Positions 19,348 to 58,900 of a stretch of DNA of 64,000 bases are shown in pieces. A model generated the notes under the pieces. The model ran no database searches. It was given only the letters and a program-made list of their open reading frames with translations, and was not told where the DNA came from. This DNA is from an uncultured virus (IMG/VR IMGVR_UViG_3300027278_000010) (Duplodnaviria > Heunggongvirae > Uroviricota > Caudoviricetes > Schitoviridae): the IMG/VR virus record IMGVR_UViG_3300027278_000010. One strand, given 5' to 3'. Every line of letters begins with the position of its first letter. Positions within the stretch are counted from its first letter, which is position 1. The position numbers were made by a program, and so were the translations under genes.

Positions 19348-19391
19348 TCGCTATAGCTTTTCCCCCTTCAATCAGCAAAGCGAGATATTTA

Positions 19392-20138: not shown

Positions 20139-20148
20139 GTAGCCAGCA

Positions 20149-20703: not shown

Positions 20704-20706
20704 CCA

Positions 20707-21249: not shown

Positions 21250-21425
21250 TGACGTTGCAAGGAATCCTGCTTCGAGGGTTCCTTGTTGTCCTGATGGTTG
21301 GTGCGACAACAGCAGCCATCATTTCAGCAGCGCCTGCGATAGCAGTTGTAATTGTGGTGGGATTTCTAGCCTGGCTATACCGGGACGTTGATTTCCCATC
21401 AGACAATGACGATAAGCCCCCATGA
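21249..21425 (+). CDS. Small membrane protein (58 aa, not in ORF track)
   Basis: TAATG overlap; MTLQGILLRGFLVVLMVG...AVVIVVGFLAWLY, two hydrophobic segments. Confidence 0.7.
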   Translation: MTLQGILLRGFLVVLMVGATTAAIISAAPAIAVVIVVGFLAWLYRDVDFPSDNDDKPP

Positions 21426-21440
21426 CGGGGGCTTATTTTA
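21412..21440. terminator. Terminator between convergent modules
   Basis: ataagccccc-atgac-gggggcttat-tttt at strand switch. Confidence 0.75.
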
Positions 21441-24400: not shown

Positions 24401-27400
24401 TGATGCTGTTGAACTTTTCCTGAGCGTAATACCGGGTAGCCGGGTTCAGGCTGTCTGCGTCATCCATGAAATGCTCAACAGTCAGCTGCTTGGTTACCCA
24501 AGAATAAAGCTGCTGTGCAGTGGCCATTGCGTTTGGATCAATAGCTGCTTCTGTAGCCAGAGCAGTGATGATGTTCTCAAACACATGGGCTTCTTGCTGG
24601 GTCATGCTAAAGCCACGAGCCTGGAAAGACTTACCGATGTTCAGGCCAGCCATAATCCCTTTATCAACGGCATCCCGTGGAGCCACTTCACCAGCTCGGA
24701 TAGGTGCGTTCAGGTATCGACCAATCAGTGTCTGGTAAGCCACACCCACATCAGTCAAACGCTGATCTTGGCCGTACTGGCTGTTCTGATAAAGCACGCT
24801 GCTTGCCATACGCTGTGCAGTCGTTGGGTTGCCTCGCATAACAACGGCAGTGTTGAACAGCAAGTTGCTGAACAGGTCATTACCAACATAAGGGGCATTT
24901 TCTTTTTTGAAGAAGATGGCCTTAATGGCTTTCACAACCTCACGAGCAATGCGGGCCATTTTGTCCAGCATGGTCCGCTGACCCAAACGGATCAGACTTT
25001 CATTGGACAGAGACCAAGCCATGAACTCGTTCAGTGCACCGGCTTTGGCCACAGAACCAGGAAGCGAAGCATTGTTCAGGTAGCCCTTGATGGCAGAAAC
25101 GGTGTCGGTGTACGACTGGGCCAGCTGCTGATTAGGCTGATCCAAGTTGTCTTCCATGGCCAGGAACTGTTTCATCATCGACTCGATACGCTGTACCGAT
25201 TCTTTTTCTACAGTGCCCATAGGCTGCTTGTTGTAGTACGCCAACACCTTTTCAAAGGTAGAAGCGTGAATCAACTCATGGATCAAAGTCTCAGTTGATG
25301 GGTTGAACAGGTAGATTGTTTTCTCACCCACGTTGGTGAAGCCCTTGATCTCACCGGCTGGAATAGCACTACCTTGAGCACCAGCAGCACCTGTGGCTTT
25401 GATGTACTCGTTCACTTTCAGCGGGTTACCAAACACAATCTTGTAGCCGTCAGCAGCCAGAGATTTCGTAACCTCATCCAAGACTTTCTGCTGGTCAGCT
25501 GGGAATGTTGTTGCTTTGCTGAATTGCTTCAAGTCACTGCTGTGCATAACAAAAGCACCGCTCTCGTGCTTCTGAGCAACCTGCAAAATAGCAGCAGTGG
25601 AATCACCAGAAGGTGCTTTGTTTTTACGAAGCTCAGCCAACTCTTCTTGGTAAAGGGCATTCAACTCTGAGGTCACTTCCTCATTTGACATCCCGGTAAG
25701 GGCAATCTCACCTGCTTTGAAATAAGGAGAGGCACCAGCAGCCATCTGGTCAACAGAGGTTTCCACCTTGGCCATAACACGATGACGGGCTTCAATGCTT
25801 TCTGCCGCTGTTGTCAGCTTGCCTACCAGGTTCTGCATGCCAGCAACAATCTCAGCATCAGGAACCGGCTTCTTCCACATAGACGGTGGGAACAACGCAC
25901 GAACCAATGCACTACGAGTTGCATCGGTGTACCCGGTCAATGGTGCCTCTTTCATAAAGGCAACATAGCTGTCAGCCACTGCCTGCATTGGGTTGCCCAT
26001 CCAGGTTTCCCAAACAGCCTCGTTCATCTTGACGCTACCATCCTGAATCAGGTCCAGGGGCAAATGCACACCGTCAAAGATTTTGAGAGTGCGATCAGGT
26101 GCACCATTCATGGTGGATGCAATCTGCATCATGTTCGCATCACCTGCCCCGATGTTCAGGAAAGGAATGCCCGACACGCCAGCATTCTTAGGCCCATGAA
26201 TGAATGCGTCAGTACGGAAAGAGCCGTCCAATGCACGGGAAGACTGGGAGGCGTTCACATCCACAGAACTGGAACCAGCAACGTAAAAAGTCTGGTGTGG
26301 GGTTTTGATCAGAGGAGAGAAACGCTCCAATTTTTTGTAGATGCGCTTCAGCTCTTTATCACTGAGGAACTCTGTCTTAGTCCAATCACTGTCAGTCTTA
26401 GCTTTACGAGCCATCTCAGCAGCAACTTGATCTTTGAACAGTTGTTCCAGAATGATCGACTGAACCTGTGTGGCCTGACGAAGAAGCACAGCAGATTCCA
26501 TAGTTGCTGCACCGACAGTCTGCTCAATTGCATTACGCATTGGCTGAACAAACAGGTGCAGCATGCTCGACTGAATGTTGCTGAACTCAGCCGGTGTCAG
26601 TGTGTAAGTTTGAGGATCAACCCCGTCATTACGGGAAGTAGCTACTTTTTCAAGAACAAGCTTCTTCTTGTCCAACGAGACTTTGTAATTACCAATTCGA
26701 TACAGAGCCGAAGTGAATTTCTTGGCCTGCACTTCATCCCCGTTGAACACGGCATCAGCCAACGAGATGGATGGATTATCAATGCGAGCTTGAGCCAACA
26801 GAGACATCTTTTCGTACATCGAGTCAGCCAGTGCTTTGGTTAGCTTGGCAGCAATACCAGTAGCCCCAGAACCGTAAATCGTAATGGTCAGTGGGTTTTT
26901 GGTAATGCCACGATCAAGAACCAAGTTGGTTCCATCAAAGCTCAGAGTAGGCAGCAAAGAATCCATCAGCGACAGCAACTCATTGAGGTGCTTACTCATG
27001 ACAGGATCATTACCCAGAGATTCACGCAGGGTATTTACCTGCTCTTGGAGTACGTCAGTAGTGGCCTGGTACAAGTCTTTCTTGTCGTACTGGCTGTACT
27101 GTTCGTTCGCAGTCATTGGACCACGATTAACAAACAGACCACCTTTGGCCATGTTCTTCAGCCAGCTGGTTGTAAACATCCCAGAAGCAAACAGCATCAT
27201 GGCATTGATTGGCCCGTTGGTAATGCCGTCCGCTTCTAGATACAAGTTGGTAGTGAATGTTGCTTTCTGTGTTGGCGTCAGTTTTCCCAGCCAAGCAAGT
27301 TCAGTGATTACATGCAAAGCAGCTGGAGTCAGCGGAACACCAGCATCAGCAAATGCTTTTTTGATGGTGCCATTCAGCTCAGGGCTTGCTTCGATAACTG

Positions 27401-30400
27401 GGACATTCGCGTCAACCGGCTCAGCAAAGCTACCAAAGAAGCCAGACAGAGCTTCAATAGCTGGAGCCAAAGAACCAGACACAAGCAGCTCTGCTTCAGC
27501 AATTGCAGCATTGGTGTCTTTTTTGTGCACTTTGATATCAAGAGCCTGTGCAGCAGCAAGCATAAACAGCTTACGGCTTTTCCCTTGGTTCATATCGAGA
27601 GTGGTGCGAGTAGGCATGAACAACTCACGAACCATCTTGTTGGCTTGTGGGCTGTACTTACCAAGCATCTGCAAACGACCAACTCGGCTGATATTGAATC
27701 CGTAACGGAAGACAGTTTCACCCAGAGCTTTGCCGTTGTTCCGTGCGTAGTTCGACACAGAATCAAGGTAACCAGTCATGTGCTGGAAAGCTGCAACCAT
27801 GCCACGGTATTTGCCATCTTCAGATGCAGCGTGGTTGATGTTCAGTGTCTTTTGTTCCGGTGGAACCAACCCGAACAAATCAAGCACCTTGTCCATACCA
27901 AGCGACTGGTACAACGCAGCCATACGTGTATCCACGTAGTACGGCGTAGCCTGTTCGTTCTCAATAGCTTCCAACTGCTGTGGTGTGTTCTGCACAAGTG
28001 GGTTGCGCATCTGAGTAGGCGAGACAGGTGGGATTGCATCGTCACCAATGAAATAGGTCTCTTCCGGTTCCAGCATCACTGTCTGCTCAATGGCATCCAC
28101 AAACTTCAACAGTGGGGAACCTTCGCTGTCTTTGGTATCCCGAGCAAACACCATAGGAACAACACGTTCCGGGGTTTTAGGGGTAACACCTTCCACTTTT
28201 GGCAGGGCAATTTTTTTAATCGTCACTGCACCGTTGTCAGCAAAGACACGCAGAATCTCAGAAGCCATGACTTCAGGAATGCCTTTGGTGTAGCCACGCA
28301 GGCCATCCGGGGAAGCTGTAACACCCCAGTAATTTGTGATCTTTGCAGCCAGAGACTGCACAGCTTCAAAGGAGGCCATGCCTTCGTTGAAGTCAGTCAC
28401 CAAGTCCTCAGAGATGACTTCTTCGTTCAGCCCGGTGATTTCAGCCACATCAGTGTGATCCAGAATGGAGCCAAGCTGATCAGCAGTCAGCAGCCACTGG
28501 AGGCCGGCAAGAACAGCACCTTCAACCAATTCTTGGTTGTAAACAAAACTCCCATTTACCTCTTCAGTGATGTTCAGGATTTTGCCTTCAACCCAACGGT
28601 TCACATCCACACCGTTTTTGAATCGCTCACCAACACCTTTCTCGGTCAGGAATTTTCCAAGGTTCTTCTGCAAAGCAGAAACCATCTTGTCACCCAGACC
28701 TAGATAATCCTGGTACGCCGAGATCACGCCAACAGGAATGTCCGTGCCAGTTTTTTGTAGAACAGCCTGGTTCATCGAACTGCTAAGTGCTTGTTTTACA
28801 AAGGCAAGTGGCGCTTCAGTACCAATGGTACGAGTGCGTGGTTCTTCCGGCAGAGTAAACGACTTGGTGAAGTAGTTCACCTTGCCAGCCAGATAAGGGA
28901 AAAGTGCAGCCAGTCCCTGACCAACGGTGGGTGCTTTCACAGGTGCAGGCGCTACTGTAGCTACAGGAGCAACAGTCTCAGCCGGGGCATCGACAACTTC
29001 AGTTACAGGTTCTACCACCGTATCAACGGTTTCTTGGGTAGTTTCTGCTGTGACAGGTTGCACTTCTTCCTGAGCAACAATAGGTGCTTCCGGCACAACC
29101 GTACTGGTAGCATCAGACTCAGCAACAGACGAACGCTGCCGAGCCGCTTTGTAGTCCGAGAAAATCTCAGAAGCTGGTTTGTTCAGTGCCGAATCCAGCG
29201 GAGTAACATCAATATGTTCAACACTCAAATCGGGAAAGGCATCAGCCAACCCATTAAGCACGTCGGCCACGAAAGCCGCTTCACCGGCAATACGTTGAGC
29301 CTTTTCGATAGACTTTTGGTTGCCTGTGTTTACAAACAGACGGGTGTTAGACGACACCCAACTACGATCAGGGGTAAGGGAGTCATAACCGATTCCTGGA
29401 GCTTGCGGATTGCCCGCAACAAAATGTGCATTAAGGGCTTTGACCTTGTTGCCCATGTGCTCCGCAAATTCACGGAGATGGAGCAGGGTGTCAGCTGCGA
29501 GATCACGGTTACCCGCCTTCCACGCAGACATAACTTCCTGTGCAAACTGCACCGCAGATTTCCCCTTCTCACCGTCATCGGTCTTAATATTCCGGGATAC
29601 AAGTTCCTCACGGGAATTGAGTCCGAGACTTTCTGCTTTCGCACTAGCAGAACGTGCAGCACGAAGCAGAGCAACAGTCGTATCTAGTGCAGCCTTTTGT
29701 TCAGGGGTGACGGTCACGTTGCCCTTGGAAACCTGATACAGCACCTGTTCCACAGTCCCCAAATCACCTTTGCCTGGCTCAATAGAAGCCACGGCAATTG
29801 TGTTCTGTACGTTCTGCTGACCTTCAGGGGTAGCGACTGTCTCATCATTGATCACTGGAGGATTGGCTACTTGCTCAGCAGCTACTTTGGCTGCGATCTG
29901 GGCGATACGGGCCATGCCAGCAGTGACTTTGGGGCTACCCATAGCCGATGCCATCATCCCATCGTATTCACGCAGCATAGCGCCTGCTGGGCTGTTCTCT
30001 GGGATAGCGTCATCAGAGAACTCTTCGCTCATCAGAATGTTGTTGATTGGCTCAATGATCTGTTGCAGAGCGTAGCTTGCACTGAGTTGTTCAGACGAGC
30101 CGTCTTCCATTGCATCAATGACATCAACCAGACGTTGAGCAGCTTCGACACGGCTGCTTGAACCAACGAGAGCAGTACGGGCTGCTTCAGGCACATAGGG
30201 ATTTGCCAGCTCTGCTTCATCAAAGCGAGCTGCGGATACCAGCTTGTCGATGTAGCTGTTGGCTTTTGCTTGCTCTTCTGGAGCAGCTTCCGAAGTGGCC
30301 ACAGCCTCACGCATAGCAGCACTGGCTTCTTCTGCGTTAGCTGCTGCACCAGTTGCGGCTTCAAATACAACCGAGTCAGAGATCGGGGAGGCAGCTTCGT

Positions 30401-31808
30401 TTGCTTCACGTACAGCGTCAGCACGGGCACTCAGACTGCCACCAATTGCACTGCCAGCAGCAGCAAGTGTTTTAGCCCCGGTACGAACAGCAGCACCCGG
30501 ACCTTGGGTGATTGCGGTCATGCCTAGACCGTAGAGAGCACCCTCACCAACTTGACGGCCAACGCCTTCAGCCAAGTCTTTGTTTTCATTTGAGATTTGG
30601 GTTTCGGCATAGTTCTGTGCCAGCTGGGAAGCACCACCTTGGATAGCTTCTTCAGTTGGCTCACGAAGTAAGGTACTGGCAGCTTTGGCAATCCCCTGGT
30701 TTACGAAGGGCGCTGCTTCAAACTTGCTGACAAGCGAACCTGTTGCAGCCGCAACCGGGAAGGTGATGGCAGCAGACAGCAAACCAGTTTTGTTTGCCAC
30801 TTCAGCTTTGGCGTCTTCTTGGCTGACATTCTGGCCAATGAGTTCACGGTACATTGGCGACTCAGCCATGAGCGTTTCATGGTCACGGCCCATGATGTCG
30901 GATACGACTTGCTGGTAAGAGCCACCAGCCTCGATACCACCAATAGAAGTAAGCACAGGTGCTGTCTTGCTGATTGCAGCAGCAGTGCTTGCAGGAACGG
31001 CTGTCTTAACAGCAGTGGGCAACACTGCACCACCGAGGGCACGAACACCTTTGCTCAAAGGACCAGCTGCAAGCAGGGAACCAAGAGCATTCAATGTCCC
31101 GTCTGCGAGGGTTGAACCGTCCATAGTCGAGTTGGTAACGCTGTCGATTGCATCGCGGCCAATTCGTTTAAGGCCAGCCACAAAGTCACCATCGGTTTTA
31201 GCTTCAATGGTTTCTTTGTATGCGTTCTCACGCTCAGTGTTGAAGTTGGCAGCTTCCATGACTTCACGGCGATTTTGTAGGGAATCAGATTGGGTGCCTT
31301 TAGCCCAATCCATTGCTTCCCCAACTGCATCAGCAGTCCAAGCACCGGCATCTTGATCCAGGATACCCACGCCAAGCGAGGCCAGCCCACCCAGAGCACC
31401 ACCTAATCCGGTAGCAACACTGGTCACCCCATCAGCCACATCACGAATTGGGCTGGGGTTTTGCGAACTCATGTCGTACTGAACCTGAGCAGCAGCATTT
31501 GCACGCTCAGCAATCATGTCGGTAGCAGCACTGCCGTATTTGCCTCGCAGCTGTGCTGCATTCAAACCACGAATGTCTTGCTCAAGTTCAGGAGCTGCAT
31601 CATCAGGCAAACCAAGCAAACGACCAGCAGCCATTTGATAGCTGCTACCCAAACCTGCTTTTTTGGTCTCAGCAACAGAGGCAACCGATTCTTTCTTTTG
31701 ATCTAAAAGACTGGGTTGAGTTGGGGTCAGTTCCATCGCCGGAGCTTCCCACTTATTAGTTGAATCAGGGCCAGCTGCTTGAGAGAGCAGTTTGTTAATA
31801 TCAACCAT
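21438..31808 (-). CDS. Virion-encapsidated RNA polymerase (N4 gp50-like)
   Basis: 3456 aa; RVGRLQM, motif A EADGITNGP, motif B RGITKNPLTITIYG, motif C IFDG; no Cys seen. Confidence 0.97.
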   Translation of the reverse strand: MVDINKLLSQAAGPDSTNKWEAPAMELTPTQPSLLDQKKESVASVAETKKAGLGSSYQMAAGRLLGLPDDAAPELEQDIRGLNAAQLRGKYGSAATDMIAERANAAAQVQYDMSSQNPSPIRDVADGVTSVATGLGGALGGLASLGVGILDQDAGAWTADAVGEAMDWAKGTQSDSLQNRREVMEAANFNTERENAYKETIEAKTDGDFVAGLKRIGRDAIDSVTNSTMDGSTLADGTLNALGSLLAAGPLSKGVRALGGAVLPTAVKTAVPASTAAAISKTAPVLTSIGGIEAGGSYQQVVSDIMGRDHETLMAESPMYRELIGQNVSQEDAKAEVANKTGLLSAAITFPVAAATGSLVSKFEAAPFVNQGIAKAASTLLREPTEEAIQGGASQLAQNYAETQISNENKDLAEGVGRQVGEGALYGLGMTAITQGPGAAVRTGAKTLAAAGSAIGGSLSARADAVREANEAASPISDSVVFEAATGAAANAEEASAAMREAVATSEAAPEEQAKANSYIDKLVSAARFDEAELANPYVPEAARTALVGSSSRVEAAQRLVDVIDAMEDGSSEQLSASYALQQIIEPINNILMSEEFSDDAIPENSPAGAMLREYDGMMASAMGSPKVTAGMARIAQIAAKVAAEQVANPPVINDETVATPEGQQNVQNTIAVASIEPGKGDLGTVEQVLYQVSKGNVTVTPEQKAALDTTVALLRAARSASAKAESLGLNSREELVSRNIKTDDGEKGKSAVQFAQEVMSAWKAGNRDLAADTLLHLREFAEHMGNKVKALNAHFVAGNPQAPGIGYDSLTPDRSWVSSNTRLFVNTGNQKSIEKAQRIAGEAAFVADVLNGLADAFPDLSVEHIDVTPLDSALNKPASEIFSDYKAARQRSSVAESDATSTVVPEAPIVAQEEVQPVTAETTQETVDTVVEPVTEVVDAPAETVAPVATVAPAPVKAPTVGQGLAALFPYLAGKVNYFTKSFTLPEEPRTRTIGTEAPLAFVKQALSSSMNQAVLQKTGTDIPVGVISAYQDYLGLGDKMVSALQKNLGKFLTEKGVGERFKNGVDVNRWVEGKILNITEEVNGSFVYNQELVEGAVLAGLQWLLTADQLGSILDHTDVAEITGLNEEVISEDLVTDFNEGMASFEAVQSLAAKITNYWGVTASPDGLRGYTKGIPEVMASEILRVFADNGAVTIKKIALPKVEGVTPKTPERVVPMVFARDTKDSEGSPLLKFVDAIEQTVMLEPEETYFIGDDAIPPVSPTQMRNPLVQNTPQQLEAIENEQATPYYVDTRMAALYQSLGMDKVLDLFGLVPPEQKTLNINHAASEDGKYRGMVAAFQHMTGYLDSVSNYARNNGKALGETVFRYGFNISRVGRLQMLGKYSPQANKMVRELFMPTRTTLDMNQGKSRKLFMLAAAQALDIKVHKKDTNAAIAEAELLVSGSLAPAIEALSGFFGSFAEPVDANVPVIEASPELNGTIKKAFADAGVPLTPAALHVITELAWLGKLTPTQKATFTTNLYLEADGITNGPINAMMLFASGMFTTSWLKNMAKGGLFVNRGPMTANEQYSQYDKKDLYQATTDVLQEQVNTLRESLGNDPVMSKHLNELLSLMDSLLPTLSFDGTNLVLDRGITKNPLTITIYGSGATGIAAKLTKALADSMYEKMSLLAQARIDNPSISLADAVFNGDEVQAKKFTSALYRIGNYKVSLDKKKLVLEKVATSRNDGVDPQTYTLTPAEFSNIQSSMLHLFVQPMRNAIEQTVGAATMESAVLLRQATQVQSIILEQLFKDQVAAEMARKAKTDSDWTKTEFLSDKELKRIYKKLERFSPLIKTPHQTFYVAGSSSVDVNASQSSRALDGSFRTDAFIHGPKNAGVSGIPFLNIGAGDANMMQIASTMNGAPDRTLKIFDGVHLPLDLIQDGSVKMNEAVWETWMGNPMQAVADSYVAFMKEAPLTGYTDATRSALVRALFPPSMWKKPVPDAEIVAGMQNLVGKLTTAAESIEARHRVMAKVETSVDQMAAGASPYFKAGEIALTGMSNEEVTSELNALYQEELAELRKNKAPSGDSTAAILQVAQKHESGAFVMHSSDLKQFSKATTFPADQQKVLDEVTKSLAADGYKIVFGNPLKVNEYIKATGAAGAQGSAIPAGEIKGFTNVGEKTIYLFNPSTETLIHELIHASTFEKVLAYYNKQPMGTVEKESVQRIESMMKQFLAMEDNLDQPNQQLAQSYTDTVSAIKGYLNNASLPGSVAKAGALNEFMAWSLSNESLIRLGQRTMLDKMARIAREVVKAIKAIFFKKENAPYVGNDLFSNLLFNTAVVMRGNPTTAQRMASSVLYQNSQYGQDQRLTDVGVAYQTLIGRYLNAPIRAGEVAPRDAVDKGIMAGLNIGKSFQARGFSMTQQEAHVFENIITALATEAAIDPNAMATAQQLYSWVTKQLTVEHFMDDADSLNPATRYYAQEKFNSIMGKNLVENDLAGRSSLLPAFLALATVNAEFRSVLSGMKLPKTAKDTSGGLDALLTNAGNAAMDSLSSRLAGIKKGDITVDAAIDALNQRIADQVQNNETFIDQFAQTTGRGVDRANEIVIEGMTKLADAAYEKGADLNKAENNTITRAVGASAQAIGMILSEERGALAAQGLTEAMNKVNGWAPVRSLLNDLVGRTDSNAKIYDMIKGVRSVIQQARQQFREDLPTLIADKFTRSLSKKEWSSLFRGMGKTDLAVLRAYFDNNAIRKMLTDEQDLAAKITTLENYIQGIDPANYATYQRKMVQLAKYMNTGVAGQYLLRNAEAISMLIGQEIQGTFQPKDATFVASIDQLVTMYSLQDLAVEDKAVLAQLAKDETVGMDFALDYLVGQRKEEVSKATPRARLNAFKGHIPSEPASSLSMVVADDKDFAKLRGKSYVRVGDYVGSKAEKSKFKKGYYFAPVAARATFEQGIMQNVRTSVSGVDAVTGYSNLATAGRVTSPVMLKRFATAMLKDNTEAESLMPVFGENGELVAVERALDPVMMERMQGETSLAVSIGIWRGRQHEESIAGIYNKALVDAQYEMYSKDIAEDASKQDQYVDLFGSNLDPVVADAVSLLTPETRAHIQSVFGSEYYVRKDMLEDAMGYRSASIGDAWTGNTRWSPETQKAVQNLAISAFGNKAYQYLTNAERITNNLVSDMRVLIVVKSVVVPVANLMSNVFQLVGRGVPLANIVRGMPKKTAEIDAYVKSRLRMIEAEAELRAAVGKPIAERRLQAEIRSITDSHKRMSIWPLIQAGEFSSISDAGVSRDEIMLSEGRLHAYIENAVNKLPQPLGTLGRYALITKDTALFQGLQKAVEYGDFLGKALLYDDLVKRQGKSKEYALGRITEEFVNYDRLSGRFRATLENLGLLWFYNFKIRSTKVALSMIRNNPVHALIAGAAPAPSLFGSVGLPTTDNIFSKLVDGSLDYSIGPGQGLSAPELNPWMNLVQ

Positions 31809-46064: not shown

Positions 46065-49000
46065 TTACAGTGGCAGAGCGCTCGTAACCTTACGCAGACT
46101 GTTGTTCTTCAAAATGATACTCCCCACAACACCAGAGGTGGAGCAATCAAACGAGAACTGAAACTTGAAGTCAGCATACCGAATGGTTTCACCAGATTGG
46201 TAGGGTGGAACAGTAATGGCCGGTGCTCTCATATGGATGGTGCGATTGCCTACAGGCAAACGGATTTTGTCCATATCAGATGGTGGCCAGAAGAACAGAT
46301 GGTTACCAAAACTCTGTCGAACAGAGCCAAAGGTTTGGGCTGGTATGTTGGCAAAAGTTGACAGTGCCAAGTTGCACGACAGCATTTGCCCAACCAGATT
46401 CACCATCTTAATGTCGGCTTCAGCTAGTAAAGTGTTGCCAGCAGAGAAGACCGTGTTAGCCCGTGGATCACCTTGGTCAGGCGAGTTCCAGCCCCAGTTA
46501 TCCCAAGGTCCATGTTGGTCTCGTGGTACAGAGGTCACCACCACAAACGACTCGTTTTTGTTACCAGTGGCTGGGATATTGAGGTCAATTTTAATTGCCG
46601 GAACGCCCTCATCCGTCACAATAGAAACAGAAACAGTACCTGGGGCAAAGGTAGCATCGCCCATGTACTCAAGCACTTTGGGGTATTCACCAGCAAGGTC
46701 ACCCCACGTGTAGTTCATGAAGTTTGAGTAGTTGCCTCCAACACCAATCCCCATAACTTGGTTTTCGTCGTTGGTGGATTTCCACAGGTTCCAACAGTCC
46801 GGCAACACACCATGCTGATAACCAGCATGGTTACCTCCAGATAACAACGCATTACCCAGTCCAGTTGCCCAACCAATAGAACTCAGGTTGAACGAAACAG
46901 GAATAGTGGCTGTGGCTTTATAAGCCGTAAAAGACAAACTGCTGTTTGGAATGATGTTTGGTCCAAGAGTCAAAGAACCAAGTTGAGTACGGCTAGGGCG
47001 GGCTGGAACTCCTGCCTCGACCATAACTTCAGCCAGTTTTCTGCCCATCACGTATGCCCCAATTGGTCCGGGGTGCAGACCGTCATGACAAGCAACATGT
47101 CCTGGAAACTCAGGGCTGTAATTACCCAAAGTGTAAGTGCCCAGTGGATTTACGTCATCCGACACCATGCCAAAAGGGTCAATCCCATTCGGACCAAGAA
47201 GGTCTTCTGTTGCATCCACAAGCCAGATATTCGGGTGTGTACCTGATGCTACCCACGAACGCAGACCTTCGTTGACGTCTTCAAGACGTGCCCGAATAGT
47301 GTCCATTTCGCTGATGCTATAGCCCTTCAGCAAATCCCGAGTACGTGGGCAGATCGCCATGAGAAATACCCATTTGCCTCTGCTCGCTAAGTCAGTAGCA
47401 GCCCGTTTGATGTTGAACAAAACTTCAGGAGCAGGAATGTTCCCCGAAAGGTCGTTAGTACCCCCCATCATGACAACAACATCAAAACGACTGATGTTGT
47501 TCAAGGCAGCGTACATTGGGCCTTGCCAAAGCACACCATCGCCCAGTGTGTCATCACTTTCCTCCCACCAATTGACAACCCGTGTACCTGCAATTGCAAA
47601 GTTCAAACCATGCTTTTGTCCCTGAACGTCTGTGGTAATGCCTGGTTCAAAGGACAAACGACCATCCAAGATATGGTCTGCATGTGTCCAGTAACCACAC
47701 ACACCAGATCCCCAGTTTTCATACATACCAGTGTTCCCTTTAGGGGGAATGTATGCGGTGTTGTAGTGTGTGATTGAGTCACCAACCATGGCCAGGCGAC
47801 GGCCTGGAAAAGGTACAGCAGCATATTCTGGAAGAGTGCTACCGTCGTCTTCCCAATCACCAGATTGAGTGCCATCTGCATCGCCTGGGCTTTGCTGAAA
47901 CTGATAGAACTGACCAACACCCACATTCTGCGGAACACTGTCAGGACCAATCAGTAAAATCGTTTCGTATACCTGCTCATCCTCACCACTAATAGCCATA
48001 GACACTGTTTGGTTAATGGTGGACTTCATGTCCACAGCAAACTGTGAATTGGCTGTGTAGTCGATATAGACAGGGTTGTTTTCAAAAGCAACACCGTAGC
48101 GAATAGGCAATCCACTACCTACTTCAGCAGACTCATTCTGCATAGTGAACGCAACATACCCATCTTGAGAACGTTCAGCCACATAGCGTGAAGTAGGGGG
48201 CACCGCATTCCAATTGGTGGCCGGATCGTCGATGTCATCACGACCATAGGCATAGCCATAGGTCAATGGGAAATTATTGTAAGGCCCGTCTGCTCCTGCC
48301 TGGAAAATGCGAGTGTTGTTCGACTCTTGATCACAGGTTTGAATCCAGACTTCCATCATGCGATCAAAAGCATTCCGCCAATCAGGGTTGTTTGGCTCCA
48401 TCTCCATACCCAAGGAGAAAGCATCAAGGAACCAGTGAATAGCATCAGCCGCCGTGGACACCTCGTTATCTGCCAGCTTACGCCACATTGGCCAAGCCTC
48501 GTACAGATCACCGTAAGGCACCATCACGTCTACAACAGTGGTGCAGTAGTTCACACCACAGACGGTATTCGCGTTTGTAGTGAGGACAATTTTACCTGGA
48601 GCACCGTCGTTATGTTGGCCAGCTGGAATAGCAGGTTGACCAAAGGAACCACCTTTCTGGGTGCCAAAGATCTTGTTGCCACCGGCGTCGATGTAATACT
48701 CGACATCGTACTGAACCCCAGTTTCCAAATCAGAAAACACGTTCAACCAAACAAACGTAGATTCCGGGCTGACCACCTGATAAACAATGTCAGGTGCGGG
48801 GTTCAGTTGACCAACTCCAGCCGTGAAGGTCACAGAAGATTGGGTGTCACGACCGTAGATATAGCCACTGAGTGCCAAGTCTCCAGAAGACTGCAATGGG
48901 CCACGGACATTGAAAGCTGCCCCACCATTACAAATCCATGAGTGATGCCAGCCTTGACCAGTTTCATCTGTGGGACGTTCCCCACGGAAAAAGAACTGGC

Positions 49001-49208
49001 AAGCAGCATCAAAAAGAAAGTGGCAGAAGTCTGCTTTAGCACTGTCACCTGTGGCAATGGCAGCACGAGCCATACCACGAAGCATCAACGAGACACCTTC
49101 AGAAGACGCAGTGCCCAAAGGGGTGTAACCCCCAAGAGCACCTTGGTCCGGCATCATGTTGTTCAGTACCAAGCCTTGCTCTGTAATTAGAGGAGGCAAA
49201 GTAGCCAT
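46065..49208 (-). CDS. Tail protein: GH8-like N-terminal region plus SGNH esterase
   Basis: SSEGVSLML and STAADAIHWFL resemble GH8 motifs; GDS, NFAIAG, GTND, DGLHP SGNH blocks. Confidence 0.8.
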   Translation of the reverse strand: MATLPPLITEQGLVLNNMMPDQGALGGYTPLGTASSEGVSLMLRGMARAAIATGDSAKADFCHFLFDAACQFFFRGERPTDETGQGWHHSWICNGGAAFNVRGPLQSSGDLALSGYIYGRDTQSSVTFTAGVGQLNPAPDIVYQVVSPESTFVWLNVFSDLETGVQYDVEYYIDAGGNKIFGTQKGGSFGQPAIPAGQHNDGAPGKIVLTTNANTVCGVNYCTTVVDVMVPYGDLYEAWPMWRKLADNEVSTAADAIHWFLDAFSLGMEMEPNNPDWRNAFDRMMEVWIQTCDQESNNTRIFQAGADGPYNNFPLTYGYAYGRDDIDDPATNWNAVPPTSRYVAERSQDGYVAFTMQNESAEVGSGLPIRYGVAFENNPVYIDYTANSQFAVDMKSTINQTVSMAISGEDEQVYETILLIGPDSVPQNVGVGQFYQFQQSPGDADGTQSGDWEDDGSTLPEYAAVPFPGRRLAMVGDSITHYNTAYIPPKGNTGMYENWGSGVCGYWTHADHILDGRLSFEPGITTDVQGQKHGLNFAIAGTRVVNWWEESDDTLGDGVLWQGPMYAALNNISRFDVVVMMGGTNDLSGNIPAPEVLFNIKRAATDLASRGKWVFLMAICPRTRDLLKGYSISEMDTIRARLEDVNEGLRSWVASGTHPNIWLVDATEDLLGPNGIDPFGMVSDDVNPLGTYTLGNYSPEFPGHVACHDGLHPGPIGAYVMGRKLAEVMVEAGVPARPSRTQLGSLTLGPNIIPNSSLSFTAYKATATIPVSFNLSSIGWATGLGNALLSGGNHAGYQHGVLPDCWNLWKSTNDENQVMGIGVGGNYSNFMNYTWGDLAGEYPKVLEYMGDATFAPGTVSVSIVTDEGVPAIKIDLNIPATGNKNESFVVVTSVPRDQHGPWDNWGWNSPDQGDPRANTVFSAGNTLLAEADIKMVNLVGQMLSCNLALSTFANIPAQTFGSVRQSFGNHLFFWPPSDMDKIRLPVGNRTIHMRAPAITVPPYQSGETIRYADFKFQFSFDCSTSGVVGSIILKNNSLRKVTSALPL

Positions 49209-50547: not shown

Positions 50548-53500
50548 TCAGCTCTCAAGTTCGTTTGAAGAAGAATCCAGTAAAGGATTCTCTGAACTGT
50601 CCAATAAGACGTTCGGGCCTGGACCCGGATTAGGTACAGGAGTTGGGTCGATGTTGTTGAATGGGAATGACCCAGTGATAACGGTCAACTGGGAGAAGTC
50701 GAGCGTGATTTCCACGTCGTTTGCTTCAATGTCATCAGACATTGTAAACAGTTGCAGTGCCAAGCGGTTAGCGCCACTCGGTGCAGTGATCTCAATGAAT
50801 AGAGTACCTTCCTCAACGCTATCACCTTGTGGCCCCATCACAACATTCAAGCCATCTGTGTAGTTGTTCCACGAAGTATCCGTGAACATGGCCATCATTC
50901 CTAACTGCCAAGCAGCATTCTCAACACCAACACCACCAAGCATGCCACCTGTATTCCAACGAACCTTGCACGCCAGTGAGTGTTTCTGCCCGGGGGTTAC
51001 AGCAAATACAGCAATGCGGCTGACCACAGACGTGTTACCTGTAACACCGATTGGTCGAATAATTCGTTGCCAATTGCCTGCTTCCGCAGGTAGCAATTGT
51101 CCAGTAAAACCAGTACCCAAGGTAAAGTTGTTGGATACACCACCAGAACCAGCAAACAAGGGGTTCGGCACCAAGTTACTACCACCAACTGCTGTTGGTA
51201 GTGGCAGTGTTCCATCTGTTGGAATGTCACCAAATGCCCCGCTATCAACGGCGTAACGTCCAAGTACAGTGTAACCGTAGTTACTAAAGTGCAGCCCATC
51301 CGGGTTCATGTAAGCCGGCTCTGCACGGTAAGAGCCAGATACCCGTAGTGCTTCAAACGCATCCACGAGGGGGATACCAGTGTCCCGGTGATACTGGCGA
51401 ATCATGTCGTTCCAAGAGGCAACGTTTGCGTCCTGCCCGCTCGTATCATTGCGTGGTGGAATAGTCCACAGAATTGGGTAAATTTTATTGGCTACAAGGA
51501 TGTCGCAGATCTCTTTGATCTGATTAACCCCACCAGTTCCTGAGTAGATGCTGTTAGTGCCAGAGGCAACCACACACGCTTTTGGGCGAGGACTCATTGC
51601 CAAAATTTGTGGCAGCTGTAGCTCCAATGCTTCTTGCACGGTACTGCCAGAAACAGCCTTGGTTCCCCGATAACGAAGACCGTGGTTACCGTAAAAGCAA
51701 GCCTTCACCAACCAACCGTTATTTAGGTAAACACCACCCTCAGTCAACGAATCACCTACAGCAGTTATGCCGTAAGCAGTGGGAGGCAAGTCAATAACAA
51801 TAGGGTCCACTTCTGGCTCTACAGGCACATCATCAGATGCAACTCCAGTAAGGGTAGCCGTCACCAACCCACCAACACCGAAGGCAACATTAAGTGTTGC
51901 TGGGAAACTGCCCTCAGCCGTTGGAGAGAAGACAACCGTCAACGTCATCACCCCATTGGCAGGCACGTTACCAATGTCAGGCGACACAGTATAACCAGCA
52001 CCAACAACCGAGGAGGTCACCGTTATTGCTTCATCGGTGCTGTTCTGTACTTCGATTGTCCGGTAATTCTCAGTGCCAGAAGCCACGGTTCCAAAAGGCA
52101 CTGTGTTTAGCGAAAGAGAAATCTCAGCTACAGGAATCGGAGTAATGAAAGGTTCCAGATATTCCAGCTTGAATGCCTGAGCCTCATGCCATTGACCAGC
52201 AGGCTGTTGGCCGACCAAGCCATCGGGGTCACCACCAGGGTTCCAGGCCCAGTAAGCAAAACTGATGTCATGCTCATCACAATAATCAGCCAGAGTGTCC
52301 ATCCACTCTTCGTCAAGTGCCAAGTTTTCAGCATCGTAGCCTGCACCCTGCCCTGTAATAGGGTCACCACCAACACGGAAATAGGAACCAAATTCACCAA
52401 TCCAAACAGGTGCGATACCCTCTTCAGCAAGGTAGCCCCACTGACGACGCCACACTTCTGCCATGTTTTGCGGGTAAGGCAGGCCAGCATACCCAGCACC
52501 GACACGGCCTTCAGGGTCAAACCACGGTTGCATCACCACACCGTCAAGGTAAGTGCCGTATTCGTGTGGAGAGTAGACAACCTTATTTGGGATGTTGAGT
52601 GTGACTAGAGCTGATCCAGCAGAATCCAGCTTACCGCTCCACCAAGTGCCCCAGTTGTATAGCCCCATCTGGCTTTCAGTATCACCTTCGTGACCTACCG
52701 GAGTGTGGTCCACGTTGCCAGTGACACCCTCGCAGATGATCAACACATCAGGGTTTACAGCGTGTACCGCTTTACCTGCACGCTCGAAATAACCAAGTAC
52801 ACCTGTCAAAGGATCACGATCCCACGTGCAGACGTGTGGTTCATTGATCATGTCAAAGCCACAGACCACAGGGCGATTCTTGTAGCGGTTTGCCAAGAAT
52901 ACGTGTGCAGCAATGGCCTGAGCCTCAGAACGAGGTTCCCGCTTCTGCCCAGCAGTTGCACCAACATCATCGGGATGGTTAGTGGTATACCACTTGCCGT
53001 TAGTGGCCAAGACGTTGCTGTCATCTGGGGCCAAGGTGTGCATGTCCAACACAATACGCAGACCAAGTGCCTCACACCAACCAACGAAAATGTCCATGAT
53101 TTCCATGGTCGTCTTGACGTTTTGTGGGTCTTCACCCGCCGTAGCATTCAAAAACTCAGGGTTCATCTGAGGATTGATATACGTGCTGTTCCAGTAACCA
53201 CTGCGGGTTTCTGGTTTGTAGCCGGGCCAAGTGCAGTCTTGGGAAAACAGAAGACGAATAGAGTTAAAGCCCAGTCGCTTTATCTCATCCAACATCCCCT
53301 CACGAAGAACTCCATTAACGACCTTGGTACGGAAAGGGCGAGTCCATGCCCCACCGGGAACGCCGGTTTGCTCAAACCCATACCAATTGATGGAACGTAG
53401 GCGAACAACCTCACCTGCTCCCTTCTGGTCTTTGAGCTTACCACCTACCGCAGTTAGGTAAGTAAGATCGCCTAACTCAGGTTCTGGATCAGGTGGCGGC

Positions 53501-53658
53501 ACTTCCTCACCAACACCGTAGCCAAGCAAAGGCACGTTGTGAGGACTGCTTGGTGCATTTGAGGTAAAGGACAACTGCCCATTACGCACACCAGCAGCAG
53601 TTGGTTTGAATAGGATCTTGAGTTGGTGTGAACCAAAAGGAGGAATAGTAATACTCAT
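50548..53658 (-). CDS. Tail enzyme: GH5 endoglucanase, Ig-like (ASH) domains and SGNH esterase
   Basis: INWYGFE, LDMH, NEPH (acid/base), YSPHEYG, WIGEFG (nucleophile), YWAWNP; GDS/GTN/DGLH. Confidence 0.9.
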   Translation of the reverse strand: MSITIPPFGSHQLKILFKPTAAGVRNGQLSFTSNAPSSPHNVPLLGYGVGEEVPPPDPEPELGDLTYLTAVGGKLKDQKGAGEVVRLRSINWYGFEQTGVPGGAWTRPFRTKVVNGVLREGMLDEIKRLGFNSIRLLFSQDCTWPGYKPETRSGYWNSTYINPQMNPEFLNATAGEDPQNVKTTMEIMDIFVGWCEALGLRIVLDMHTLAPDDSNVLATNGKWYTTNHPDDVGATAGQKREPRSEAQAIAAHVFLANRYKNRPVVCGFDMINEPHVCTWDRDPLTGVLGYFERAGKAVHAVNPDVLIICEGVTGNVDHTPVGHEGDTESQMGLYNWGTWWSGKLDSAGSALVTLNIPNKVVYSPHEYGTYLDGVVMQPWFDPEGRVGAGYAGLPYPQNMAEVWRRQWGYLAEEGIAPVWIGEFGSYFRVGGDPITGQGAGYDAENLALDEEWMDTLADYCDEHDISFAYWAWNPGGDPDGLVGQQPAGQWHEAQAFKLEYLEPFITPIPVAEISLSLNTVPFGTVASGTENYRTIEVQNSTDEAITVTSSVVGAGYTVSPDIGNVPANGVMTLTVVFSPTAEGSFPATLNVAFGVGGLVTATLTGVASDDVPVEPEVDPIVIDLPPTAYGITAVGDSLTEGGVYLNNGWLVKACFYGNHGLRYRGTKAVSGSTVQEALELQLPQILAMSPRPKACVVASGTNSIYSGTGGVNQIKEICDILVANKIYPILWTIPPRNDTSGQDANVASWNDMIRQYHRDTGIPLVDAFEALRVSGSYRAEPAYMNPDGLHFSNYGYTVLGRYAVDSGAFGDIPTDGTLPLPTAVGGSNLVPNPLFAGSGGVSNNFTLGTGFTGQLLPAEAGNWQRIIRPIGVTGNTSVVSRIAVFAVTPGQKHSLACKVRWNTGGMLGGVGVENAAWQLGMMAMFTDTSWNNYTDGLNVVMGPQGDSVEEGTLFIEITAPSGANRLALQLFTMSDDIEANDVEITLDFSQLTVITGSFPFNNIDPTPVPNPGPGPNVLLDSSENPLLDSSSNELES

Positions 53659-55444: not shown

Positions 55445-57034
55445 TCACACGATGTAAGAATCCAAAGCACTATGGTCTTTTTCCCGACCCTCATACTCAT
55501 AGATTTCAACCTCATCAGGCAGCACGGGTGCGGACTCTGAAGGTTTCCATGGTTTCAAGTAAGCCAGTTGGGAGATGGTATCCAAGCAGTCATCCTTACC
55601 CTTGATACCACTCTTGGTGGTGAGGCGGATTTGCTCTAAGAATTTACCGACAATGATGCTTTGTTTCATCTCTTCGGGAAAGTAAATCTTCCGTGCTTTG
55701 AACCAAGGAACAACCAGGTTGAACCGTGACAGCTTGTCCACGACTGGGCGAATACCAGGGGAACCGCTCTTCTCAGAAGAAGCAAAGTTGAACCAGATAT
55801 TCCGAACGATCATCTCGGACTGGAGCCAGTTAATAAAAGCACCCTGCTGACCAGAGACTTCAACACCAACAAGCTGTGGTTTGTATTCCTGAATCCCCTT
55901 GAACAGATCATTGATGGTCTTGTCCATCGTCTGCTTTTCACAAATACCATCCACCCAGAACCAGTCCCCGTTATGGTTGTAGGCCCAGTGGGATATCACA
56001 CTGTCGTCCGCTGTTTGCTTAGCCGATGTGGCAAAGTCGGTTGTTGTGTAGAAGTTAAAGCTATGGCGATTCTCCAGAAGACGAGCACGGGAGTACCAAC
56101 CAATCTCCTCTTCTTGCACCAAGCGTTCTTCTTCAGACGTGATACGAAGCATGAGTTCCTGATAAAAGGAAGACAGCTTGCCCGTCTGAACAGCCATCGT
56201 GTATTGCTCTTGGATGTAGTCAAAGCTGAAGCGGTCCTCCCATGCCCCACAGAAATCCTCTCGTGTGCAGGGGAAGCGTTCACATACCGGCCATACGTTC
56301 ACATCCCACGCACCAGACTCAACCGCTTCAATCAGAATGTCGTCAGTGTTGAATGGCGTACCGTTGAAGATCACCTTGCGCCGAGTTGGATCAAGGGCGT
56401 GGTTCACCCCCTTATAAACAGTGTCTTTGATCGCTTCCATCGAAACCTTCGACTTGGAGTCGTCATCGCTTACCAAGTCATCGAGCACACATAGCACCGG
56501 TCGCTTACCGAAAATCTTCGTACCACGAAGACCAGTCTTGGCACCAAACATCTTGACCCCAAGCATGTGTCCTTCGACGTTCACAAATTCCAGATATCCG
56601 TCTGTGAATGTCGCGTGTGGAATCCACTGCTGCAAAAAGGCGCTGTTGTCGTAGCGAAACTTGATGTTCTTCTTGGCAGACTTCACGCCGTTGTCCATCG
56701 AGTCGGACACGTAGATCATGCCAGTGACCTTACCCAATCCAGGTAGGTGACCGAACATCGCAATGAAGAGCACCAGATACTCCATAAACAAAGTCGTCTT
56801 CGCTGCACCACGGAAGCACAGGTTGGCGATGTACTTGTTTGGAGAGATCACCTTGTCCAACATCTTTAGGTGAACAGGTGGGGTTTTGTGGCTTTCGCCT
56901 TCTTCGCCATTGACCAGCTTGATGAAGTTCATGAAGGTCAAGGCAAATTCGGATGGCAGGTAGTCACTGGAGTTCAGCTCTGAATAGCTGACCTGATTCA
57001 GCCACTCGTCAAGCTTTTGCTTTTGCAGCGTCAT
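55445..57034 (-). CDS. terL: Terminase large subunit
   Basis: FRGAAKTT Walker A, VLDD Walker B, GTP, TTDFATS, KDDCLD. Confidence 0.95.
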   Translation of the reverse strand: MTLQKQKLDEWLNQVSYSELNSSDYLPSEFALTFMNFIKLVNGEEGESHKTPPVHLKMLDKVISPNKYIANLCFRGAAKTTLFMEYLVLFIAMFGHLPGLGKVTGMIYVSDSMDNGVKSAKKNIKFRYDNSAFLQQWIPHATFTDGYLEFVNVEGHMLGVKMFGAKTGLRGTKIFGKRPVLCVLDDLVSDDDSKSKVSMEAIKDTVYKGVNHALDPTRRKVIFNGTPFNTDDILIEAVESGAWDVNVWPVCERFPCTREDFCGAWEDRFSFDYIQEQYTMAVQTGKLSSFYQELMLRITSEEERLVQEEEIGWYSRARLLENRHSFNFYTTTDFATSAKQTADDSVISHWAYNHNGDWFWVDGICEKQTMDKTINDLFKGIQEYKPQLVGVEVSGQQGAFINWLQSEMIVRNIWFNFASSEKSGSPGIRPVVDKLSRFNLVVPWFKARKIYFPEEMKQSIIVGKFLEQIRLTTKSGIKGKDDCLDTISQLAYLKPWKPSESAPVLPDEVEIYEYEGREKDHSALDSYIV

Positions 57035-57234
57035 GGTCGTTCTCCAACATACCCATTTGACTGATCGACCTTATCCTTTGCCAGCTTGAGTGCAGCGACT
57101 CGTTCGTCCTGATGGGTGAATCCCATCAGAACAATAGCAGCTGGACGCTCTCCATTAAGAACAGCGCCCCGGAGTTTTGTTGGCCAAACATAATTCTGTT
57201 TCTTATTGGACTTCCAATATACCTCTATGATCAT
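57031..57234 (-). CDS. Hypothetical protein
   Basis: 4-nt overlaps with both neighbours. Confidence 0.7.
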   Translation of the reverse strand: MIIEVYWKSNKKQNYVWPTKLRGAVLNGERPAAIVLMGFTHQDERVAALKLAKDKVDQSNGYVGERP

Positions 57235-57902
57235 ACCACTTCGCCTTGGATGATTCGTTGACCAGCAATCTCGCGGGTGTTCACACCAAGCTCAATCAAT
57301 TCTTGCTGACGCTTGGCCATAGATGCCAATGCTTCACGCATCTCGTTCATACCACTCGACTCATTGATATCAATGCTGATCTTACCAGCTACTTCTTTCG
57401 GTTTAGCCAAGTGAGTGAGGATAGAGTTGGCCGCAGTGGTACGCACCATCTCGCTCTGTGCGTTTTGCATCAGGTCCACTTGAGTATTGATAGCCTTCTG
57501 ATAGTTCTCTTGGTTCAACAACCACACTGGAATCAGCGACTGTTCCAGGATTGCGTTGACCAGTTTACCTTTGTGGTACGCAGCAACGTATGAAGAGATG
57601 TCTTTGCTGGACGTACCCTTAGCCACCAGTGCTTGATGCCGGCTTGGAAAGGTTTTGAAGTAGGCGTCTTGGTTGCTGTACCCCATGTGCTTGAAGCTGA
57701 CATAGGCAACGGCATGCACATAGTCTTCGGACTTGTACTTGCCTTCCTTTAATACGTGGGCGTAGCTGATGAAATTTTGCTGCACCTGCTCGGCTATCAG
57801 CGGGTCTGCAACGATGTTGTTGACCAGATCAGCCAGTTGCTGAGTAGCAGCAGTCTTCAGGTTGGCAGGCAGCGCCTGAGCGATTTCCTGTTTAGTCAGC
57901 AT
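57231..57902 (-). CDS. N4 gp69-like protein (probable small terminase)
   Basis: GAGGA SD; ALPANLK, YFKTFP.R, AANSILTHL; upstream of terL. Confidence 0.8.
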   Translation of the reverse strand: MLTKQEIAQALPANLKTAATQQLADLVNNIVADPLIAEQVQQNFISYAHVLKEGKYKSEDYVHAVAYVSFKHMGYSNQDAYFKTFPSRHQALVAKGTSSKDISSYVAAYHKGKLVNAILEQSLIPVWLLNQENYQKAINTQVDLMQNAQSEMVRTTAANSILTHLAKPKEVAGKISIDINESSGMNEMREALASMAKRQQELIELGVNTREIAGQRIIQGEVV

Positions 57903-57952
57903 GATTCTTCCTCTAATTTATGTAGAGGGGAGTCTCCTCCCCTCTTCCTTTA

Positions 57953-58717
57953 TTACTGGGTTTGACGAGCAACGCGAGAAGCGAGGCTGTTGTAGTAGGT
58001 CTGCATAGCCGAAAGCTGATTGAGCATATCGTTACGCTCTTCTTGGATCAGGCTCTTGAATACATCGCCTTCGGTGAACATACGCAGCTTGGTGATGTTA
58101 CCACCCAGAGTGGCCAGCTCGCTTTGCATGCGGGTCACATGGGTTTGCACCTTTGGAGTAGCCACAAGGGAGTAGCTTTTCTCAAACACATCTCGCGGTG
58201 ACCAGGAGATGTAACCGTCAAAGCCAGCTACGTTGTTGATGCCACCGTCCACGTATTGAACCAAGTAGCCCTCATCCTCACCGTTCTCATCGAGCGGCAG
58301 GCTCCAACCACGCAGGATGGTGTAGTCCAGACGATTCATTGGAACAAAGTGAACAACCTTCTGGCCGAGCGCAGTCTTCACAGGCTCTGCTTGATGAAGG
58401 ATCGCGCCGGTAGGTACGCCTGCTTTTTCGATAGCAGCAAGACGACACTTCAGCTCATAGCCCATGAGCATCCAGATTTTTTCTTCGGCATTCTCTCTGG
58501 AGATTTTTTCGCCGGTGCTCTTCACGTAGTTCTCAGGACTGGCACACGCAGATTCGCCGGTCACCATGAAACCGTTTTGCAGGGTGATCACGCAGATGGT
58601 TAGCAAGCCGTGGTACAGGAACTCCACATTCTTGATGTTCGCTTGTTGCATATCCCGAGTAACACGGGGGGCAAGGGCAGCGGCCTGAAGTTCTGCTTCG
58701 GTAATGCTTGTGGTCAT
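57953..58717 (-). CDS. Three-domain protein: Phage_gp49_66 (Acb4-like), GYISWSP domain and helical domain
   Basis: LTICVITLQNGFMVTGESACASPENY...IWMLMGY; RGW...EN..DEGYLV.Y...GYISWSPRDVFEKSY; RM..EL..L...I.KL..F; likely ATG 58717. Confidence 0.82.
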   Translation of the reverse strand: MTTSITEAELQAAALAPRVTRDMQQANIKNVEFLYHGLLTICVITLQNGFMVTGESACASPENYVKSTGEKISRENAEEKIWMLMGYELKCRLAAIEKAGVPTGAILHQAEPVKTALGQKVVHFVPMNRLDYTILRGWSLPLDENGEDEGYLVQYVDGGINNVAGFDGYISWSPRDVFEKSYSLVATPKVQTHVTRMQSELATLGGNITKLRMFTEGDVFKSLIQEERNDMLNQLSAMQTYYNSLASRVARQTQ

Positions 58718-58900
58718 ATCTCTCTCCAATACATCTCTAGGGTATGCGGACCACCCGTCTATTTTTTCTTTGGGTGGTTGCTTCTTGCGATTTACACTTT
58801 AGACTCTTTATAGTTTTTGCTCAAACTCTTTCTCCTACAAGGACAAGGAGGGCCATTCCTATTGTCTGTTGATACTCAACAGCCACAATAAAAACTGAAC

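Follow-up and report, generated by a model that had tools for sequence, protein, structure and literature searches.

An unnamed module between Acb4-family and Sequestin domains in a probable multi-module counter-defence protein of an N4-like phage

Several small phage proteins are known that act as sponges for the nucleotide signals of bacterial immune systems, and two families of these are of direct relevance here. The Acb4 protein of phage SPO1 belongs to the Pfam family PF13876 and is a tetramer with four molecules of 3'3'-cyclic GMP-AMP (3'3'-cGAMP) bound at the protomer interfaces; the same ligand was bound by all eight Acb4 homologues assayed, and the specificity of Gram-negative homologues differs (10.1101/2024.12.30.630793 / PMC11722364). 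For the Acb4 homologue of phage N4, an affinity of 111 nM for cyclic di-AMP (c-di-AMP) is reported (a 2026 preprint). The second family, PF21825 (crAss001_48), was, in a survey of what Tad2 and Acb4 are fused to in Pfam, the commonest partner, with 60 cases for Tad2 and 91 for Acb4; its members cancel type I Thoeris by sequestering 3'cADPR, the glycocyclic ADP-ribose 1''-3' gcADPR, as antiparallel dimers, and were named Sequestin (10.1101/2025.07.12.664507). Both families are joined in gp59 of Pseudomonas phage vB_PaeP_C2-10_Ab09, a tetramer that has a high affinity for 1''-3' gcADPR and a lower one for 3'3'-cGAMP, and that acts as an inhibitor of type I Thoeris and, in part, of type II-A CBASS, the cyclic-oligonucleotide-based antiphage signalling system (10.64898/2026.06.04.730250). 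In this study I describe a gene in a 64,000-nucleotide stretch of DNA from an uncultured virus (IMG/VR record IMGVR_UViG_3300027278_000010; the whole stretch is referred to as the window), in which the same two families are found in the same order, with a third module, here called W or the GYISWSP module, in between.

Judged from its sequence, the encoded protein is a variant of the published Acb4-Sequestin fusion class to which the W module has been added. I consider it quite probable that an N4-like phage (Schitoviridae-type) uses it as a counter-defence protein of several modules, with sponges at both ends and W most likely as a brace between them. The initial annotation had placed the feature at 57953..58717, which is exactly the extent of a single minus-strand open reading frame (ORF) of 254 codons and a stop, with its ATG at 58717 and its TAA at 57953-57955 (Table 1). 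The homologues in an alignment of 76 full-length sequences begin at a methionine equivalent to this ATG, and the alternative TTG start at 58729 falls within the GGAGAG motif that precedes the gene. The three separable modules that were initially proposed are borne out by Pfam, by PHROGs, by the units of an AlphaFold2 model and by other phages, in which all three are found separated from one another. PHROGs divides the protein into phrog_322 (residues 1-102), phrog_872 (111-186) and phrog_774 (189-252), and the AlphaFold2 model, built with the 76 full-length homologues, consists of three compact units, the first two of alpha/beta type, with the second one small, and the last one helical, at a mean predicted local distance difference test score (pLDDT) of 93.2. 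The full-length protein has 517 homologues at E<=1e-3; among the 120 best-listed of these, 81 contain both PF13876 and PF21825, and many are located on contigs of 72-77 kb. The nearest record, a 44-kb fragment, carries an identical gene, and no Tad2 was found there. A megablast search of the locus against phage records gave no match, and an NCBIfam scan of the protein returned no families.

The first module had been assigned to Phage_gp49_66, the family of Acb4. The Pfam check of the individual domains gave PF13876 at 83.1 bits (cut-off 27, E 2.1e-23), residues 1-105 alone reach 85.7 bits, and the Acb4 paper puts SPO1 Acb4 in this family, so that the assignment holds. The fold agrees with this. 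In a Foldseek comparison with the Acb4 crystal structure 9e4w, the best match has E 4.3e-4, a template modelling (TM) score of 0.69-0.74 by target length and a root-mean-square deviation (rmsd) of 1.7 A over 71 columns, and over the different chains of 9e4w the values range from 4.3e-4 to 1.2e-3 for E, from 0.68 to 0.74 for the TM score by target and from 1.4 to 1.7 A for the rmsd, over 67-71 columns. [quoted passage not shown] In a pairwise comparison, module 1 and SPO1 Acb4 are weakly similar (phmmer E 0.13), and identity to the PF13876 protein of phage N4 (RefSeq gp48), which I take to be the published c-di-AMP-binding homologue, is 45% over 51 aa. SPO1 Acb4 and N4 gp48 share Pfam family and fold with module 1, but both are single-domain proteins of about 96-123 aa, and most of the SPO1 contact residues are changed in module 1. 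By homology to these proteins, the N-terminal domain is predicted to form a tetramer that sequesters CBASS-type cyclic dinucleotides at its protomer interfaces.

At the other end of the protein, Pfam confirms the crAss001_48-type helical domain that had been suspected, with PF21825 at 46.5 bits (cut-off 24.8, E 3.5e-12). Helices are located at residues 193-215, 218-222 and 225-253 of the AlphaFold2 model. The alignment of the 76 homologues shows no variation at E200, Q234 and R248 and a conservation of at least 90% at R196, and the spacings between R196, E200, Q234 and R248 (4, 34 and 14) are those of R7, E11, Q45 and R59 in SequestinB. In SequestinA, alanine at E12, Q47 or R61 abolishes activity (10.1101/2025.07.12.664507). 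The domain therefore resembles the Sequestin family (SequestinA/B, T4 Y16O) in its score above the Pfam cut-off, its helical fold, its length of about 60 aa and an R/E/Q/R pocket at SequestinB spacing. In contrast to Sequestins, which are usually stand-alone proteins of 60-80 aa, it makes up the C-terminal third of a fusion. As in the published members, it would be expected to form antiparallel dimers that sequester the type I Thoeris signal 1''-3' gcADPR.

Family membership and fold, together with conserved pocket residues, account for the two end modules. According to the initial annotation a single protein neutralises signals of both CBASS and Thoeris, and homology together with precedent supports this as a prediction: PF21825 is Sequestin, and Ab09 gp59 binds both signals, which makes that fusion a direct precedent for the dual-signal reading. 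Ab09 gp59 is also encoded by an N4-like phage and has the two sponge families in identical order. However, it is only 147 aa long, has no W between its domains, and is encoded in the interval between the primase and virion RNA polymerase (vRNAP) genes, rather than at the head of a terminase and structural block. The layout of Ab09 gp59 is also seen in a protein of Litunavirus vB_PaeP_4029 (147 aa), which was used in place of gp59 for the sequence comparison; module 1 shows 42% identity to it over 71 aa. All three modules occur in a single protein in Pseudomonas phage inbricus and Achromobacter phage Axy13 (Table S3 of the Acb4 paper), although in permuted order, with W first (W-Acb4-Sequestin); a protein of this type is matched in BFVD, a database of predicted viral structures, at E 9.7e-8 and a TM score of 0.87. 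The text of the Acb4 paper speaks only of 'additional extensions' in some homologues (10.1101/2024.12.30.630793 / PMC11722364).

The W module is without a name in the literature searched, and residues 100-190 alone match no Pfam family up to E 10. In order to find its relatives, a profile was made from the W domain of the window and 19 short relatives (20 sequences, here called A2). Searched against 1.84 billion cluster representatives, A2 matched 2381 at E<=1e-3 and, at the stricter E<=1e-10, 1291. In the 150 that score best, five columns show no variation and a further 26 are conserved to at least 90%, and these residues recur whatever the partner. A Pfam partner is present in 96 of the 150, and 95 of these have at least one sponge from among Sequestin, Tad2, Acb4 and the Acb2/Tad1 hairpin. 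PF21825 occurs in 48, PF11195 (Tad2) in 42, PF13876 in 13, PF24729 (Acb2/Tad1 hairpin) in two and PF25311 (WDGH) in one, with ten proteins having two partners. The other 54 comprise 13 proteins with less than 40 aa beyond W and 41 with an extra segment of at least 40 aa; nine of these segments match local hidden Markov models (HMMs) of Tad2, Sequestin or Acb4 (E<=0.01), and 32 match none, almost all of them being BLAST singletons. As an observation apart, these 32 W-fused segments and the WDGH fusion (P0214) are candidates for further sponge families by the fusion logic that led to Sequestin.

A similar picture is seen in IMG/VR, where at least 537 stretches encode W. The best 80 of these loci, not de-replicated, were examined with the local HMMs, and 76 have a sponge partner: W-Tad2 in 59, W-Sequestin in six, Acb4-W-Sequestin in five, Acb4-W in three, and W-Sequestin-Tad2, W-Acb4 and W-Acb4-Sequestin in one each. 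The four loci without an HMM partner have one ORF of 92 aa and three of 154-198 aa. In 21 of the best 80 a separate sponge ORF is found, which in 18 is adjacent and on the same strand (from overlapping to 41 nt apart). Two W-Tad2 ORFs of 315 and 304 aa (L053 and L056) contain about 150 residues that match none of the four local HMMs, perhaps a further module. The earlier statement that the GYISWSP module is often fused to Tad2/DUF2829 is therefore correct, for the 42 of the 150 best representatives as well as for the 59 of the best 80 loci. A search aimed at short forms of W gave 43 proteins of at most 138 aa, of which 20 are W-Sequestin, one contains Tad2 and 22 are without a Pfam domain; 15 of these 22 have a length of only 73-95 aa and represent W on its own, five of them on contigs of 29-92 kb. 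From the stand-alone forms and the fusion layouts it follows that W is an autonomous domain, which is nearly always fused to a sponge, mostly directly N-terminal to it, and which rarely occurs alone.

In a tree of the W segments only 4 of 146 inner branches are well supported, and the partner labels require 43 changes, compared with a mean of 53.5 and a minimum of 48 for shuffled labels. This nearly random placement fits a repeated reshuffling of W among its partners, as far as such a tree can tell, but proves little. Subfamilies of W specific for one partner were considered and set aside, as the tree is too poorly resolved.

Alone, W is modelled by AlphaFold2 at a pLDDT of 91.0 as beta-beta-alpha-beta-beta-alpha. 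Against the PDB, a profile search of the sequences gave no hits up to E 10 and Foldseek no rows at E<=1e-3, and a search of the ESM Atlas with a stand-alone W protein returned only unnamed viral clusters of 67-93 aa. At the level of sequence profiles, a relationship of W with Tad2 was tried and rejected: when the W alignment was compared by hhalign with the Tad2 domain in the fusion of Klebsiella phage BaqKoxi, the probability was 0.24%, Pfam has no match for W up to E 10, and the local Tad2 HMM finds nothing in the window. In BFVD, W matches other W-carrying proteins and, in Yersinia phage TG1, also a protein with a RyR domain (E 1.2e-4, TM score 0.72 by query). This TG1 protein is named as similar to gp68 in the record of Pectobacterium phage vB_PatP_CB1, and hhalign aligns A2 with residues 1-71 of gp68 at a probability of 96.4% (E 1.1e-9, 28% identity, 71 columns). 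The C-terminal half of gp68 is PF02026 (RyR), and the protein was named 'RyR Tad'; in its crystal structure the N-domain, gp68_N, dimerises by domain swapping, the beta1 of one protomer being taken up by the other, and gp68_N alone is reported to have no anti-Thoeris I activity (10.64898/2026.06.04.730250). It is the sole experimentally examined relative of W.

Like W, gp68_N precedes a gcADPR sponge in a fusion protein encoded by an N4-like phage. However, it is diverged, its partner is the RyR repeat PF02026, and it is without the loop motifs RGW..P.DEN and DGG..N that are invariant in canonical W. By analogy with gp68_N, W is most likely a strand-swapped dimerising brace, which would tie together protomers between the two sponge units and may add a conserved binding surface of its own. 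In gp49 of phage N4 (RefSeq, 160 aa), a canonical W is present at residues 6-79 (hhalign probability 99.75%, 46% identity). In N4 gp49 and in a 164-aa protein of BaqKoxi, W is fused to Tad2 (PF11195; residues 83-159 in N4) instead of Sequestin, and Acb4 is a separate adjacent gene; the two phages thereby divide between neighbouring genes what is a single gene in the window, namely Acb4, W and a sponge of the gcADPR type. The N4 gene (L043:4004-4486) follows directly after the Acb4 homologue and is annotated only as a DUF2829 protein, and there W could be tested in a standard laboratory system.

Several observations weigh against the proposed combination of two sponges and a brace. The SPO1 contacts named are K36, F48, E49, V56, Y57, F62, N63, I66, T70 and K81, of which K81 is outside the phmmer alignment; of the nine that can be placed in this weak alignment, F48 is identical (F50), F62 is conservatively replaced (Y64), and the other seven differ. 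As most of the ligand contacts differ, SPO1 is no guide to the ligand specificity of module 1; and since Gram-negative homologues have another specificity, these contacts speak neither for nor against binding. The match to the Sequestin pocket (SequestinA R8, E12, Q47 and R61) was judged from residue spacing, without a direct alignment, and no sigma-70-like promoter was found on the strand of the fusion gene. With respect to W, gp68_N keeps 10 of the 17 positions that are invariant in A2 (K13, M20, G43, Y44, L45, Y62, S64, W65, P67 and F71 in module numbering), essentially those in strands, and lacks the other seven (R22, R29, W31, P34, E37, N55 and G61), which fall in the helix and the two long loops of the model. 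Canonical W hence has a conserved surface feature that gp68_N lacks. Pure bracing explains neither these seven positions nor the 15 stand-alone W proteins of 73-95 aa.

Alternatively, W could be an anti-defence effector with a target of its own, either as a sponge for another signal (e.g. His-ADP-ribose, N7-cyclic ADP-ribose, cyclic trinucleotides, or cyclic UMP and cyclic CMP) or as a small acidic binder of a host defence or guard protein, in which case the protein would disarm three targets. I regard this as possible but rather unlikely. In its favour, W goes almost only with sponges, of four unrelated Pfam families in addition to the RyR-type sponge, and this is the guilt-by-fusion logic with which Sequestin was found (10.1101/2025.07.12.664507). 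W also exists as a single ORF of 73-95 aa, its sequences are not sorted by partner in the poorly resolved tree, and about 30 of its approximately 75 positions are at least 90% conserved across the 150 representatives with their differing partners, many of them being aromatic or charged residues located in two long loops. On the other side stands the reported inactivity of gp68_N alone against type I Thoeris (10.64898/2026.06.04.730250), even though this negative result need not transfer to canonical W, as the seven invariant positions are missing from gp68_N. Furthermore, W is acidic, with a median isoelectric point of 4.94 and a median net charge of -4 over 151 segments (-5 in this protein), whereas the pockets of published sponges are positively charged (10.1101/2025.07.12.664507). 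Stand-alone forms are a small minority, with 13 of the 150 representatives having less than 40 aa beyond W and one of the best 80 loci, and a ligand site is neither solved nor predicted. The initial annotation had regarded domains 2 and 3 as further sponges or hydrolases; for domain 3, which is of the Sequestin family, a sponge role is supported by homology, but for domain 2 the idea is not supported, given the inactive relative and the absence of an apparent catalytic motif.

The window represents most of an N4-like phage genome, with an SU10-type portal, a family A DNA polymerase and a PriCT primase found by Pfam, and a large terminase, a single-stranded DNA-binding protein (SSB) and a RuvC-like gene by PHROGs. 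The ORF at 21438-31808 has 3456 codons, a length that I presume to be found only in the virion RNA polymerase of N4-like phages. The fusion gene is the first of a leftward packaging and structural block. Directly upstream of the small terminase gene, a full-length homologue is also found in Pseudomonas phage Arace01, as is a 188-aa homologue in OLIVR1, of which only the Acb4 part is matched. In N4, by contrast, gp48 (PF13876) and gp49 lie just before the vRNAP gene, and BaqKoxi has a matching pair; the primase-vRNAP interval has been called the N4-like 'anti-signalling hotspot' (a 2026 preprint). In the window this interval (18604-21309) contains an AAA_24 (Sak4-like) gene, an SSB gene (phrog_743), a RuvC-like gene (phrog_159), of a kind called Bes1 in a 2026 preprint, and a 180-aa ORF, and no Acb4, Tad2, Sequestin or W domain was found in it with Pfam, the local HMMs or PHROGs. 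Over the entire window, the local HMMs for W, Acb4, Sequestin and Tad2 match the fusion ORF alone, and Pfam did not find the W-partner and sponge families PF13876, PF21825 and Tad2 in the 59 other ORFs.

A role in packaging or as an accessory of the virion, instead of as an immune antagonist, is highly improbable for the protein: the gene opens a block running into the small and large terminase genes and the OLIVR1 homologue is annotated as 'putative structural protein', but the accessible part of the OLIVR paper gives no virion proteomics for that protein, N4, BaqKoxi and 4029 carry these domains in the hotspot and away from packaging genes, and for both end-domain families direct binding and rescue data exist (10.1101/2024.12.30.630793 / PMC11722364; 10.1101/2025.07.12.664507; 10.64898/2026.06.04.730250). 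From its position at the head of this block, the sponge would be made together with late proteins, which are of the kind reported to trigger signalling defences.

Between the fusion gene and the small terminase gene a G+C-rich hairpin is located (Table 1), which as minus-strand RNA has a folding energy of -22.4 kcal/mol (z -3.75, none of 200 shuffles as stable) and a tail that is weakly U-rich on the strand of the gene; it could attenuate or stabilise the transcript. Upstream of the fusion gene, in a divergent intergenic region with rightward genes starting near 59015, CCACCC ... GGGTGG at 58744-58776 is an inverted repeat, the loop of which is T-rich. Elsewhere in the structural block, two ORFs of more than 1000 aa each (46065-49208 and 50548-53658) contain GDSL/SGNH esterase domains, the second together with GH5 cellulase and Ig-like (ASH/HYDIN-type) domains; these are probably spikes or fibres of the tail, able to degrade polysaccharides and to deacetylate.

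Table 1. Positions in the window of the fusion gene, its predicted domains and neighbouring features
Feature	Coordinates	Strand	Basis and remarks
Whole coding sequence	57953..58717	-	Fusion of Acb4, unnamed W module and Sequestin, 254 aa; ORF, Pfam, AlphaFold2 model
Shine-Dalgarno-like GGAGAG	58722..58727	-	4 nt before the ATG; read from sequence
Acb4-family domain PF13876, residues 20-92	58442..58660	-	Pfam, Foldseek to 9e4w; predicted cyclic-dinucleotide sponge unit
Unnamed W (GYISWSP) module, residues 108-188	58154..58396	-	phrog_872, AlphaFold2, hhalign; beta-beta-alpha-beta-beta-alpha
Sequestin domain PF21825 (crAss001_48), residues 192-250	57968..58144	-	Pfam, pocket residues; predicted 1''-3' gcADPR (3'cADPR) sponge unit
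9-bp G+C-rich hairpin	57924..57945	.	Between fusion gene and small terminase gene; terminator-like on + strand
Small terminase subunit gene	57231..57902	-	Directly downstream of fusion gene; 67% identity to annotated small terminase of Pseudomonas phage Arace01; phrog_2109
Terminase large subunit	55445..57034	-	phrog_38, E 3.7e-94

Sponge fusions show how one small phage gene can cover several nucleotide-based defences. In the present case a third domain, without a name in the databases and represented by more than 2000 sequence clusters, joins the published Acb4-Sequestin type. That the gene opens the packaging and structural block, and is not in the usual N4 hotspot, suggests that the sponge is co-produced with late proteins that trigger defence. 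Whether W has a target of its own is directly testable, because a canonical W is present in the model phage N4. If W merely braces oligomers, it would be an element of general use in the design of phage sponges; if it does have its own target, it would represent a new counter-defence family, reached by a fusion logic like that which led to Sequestin.

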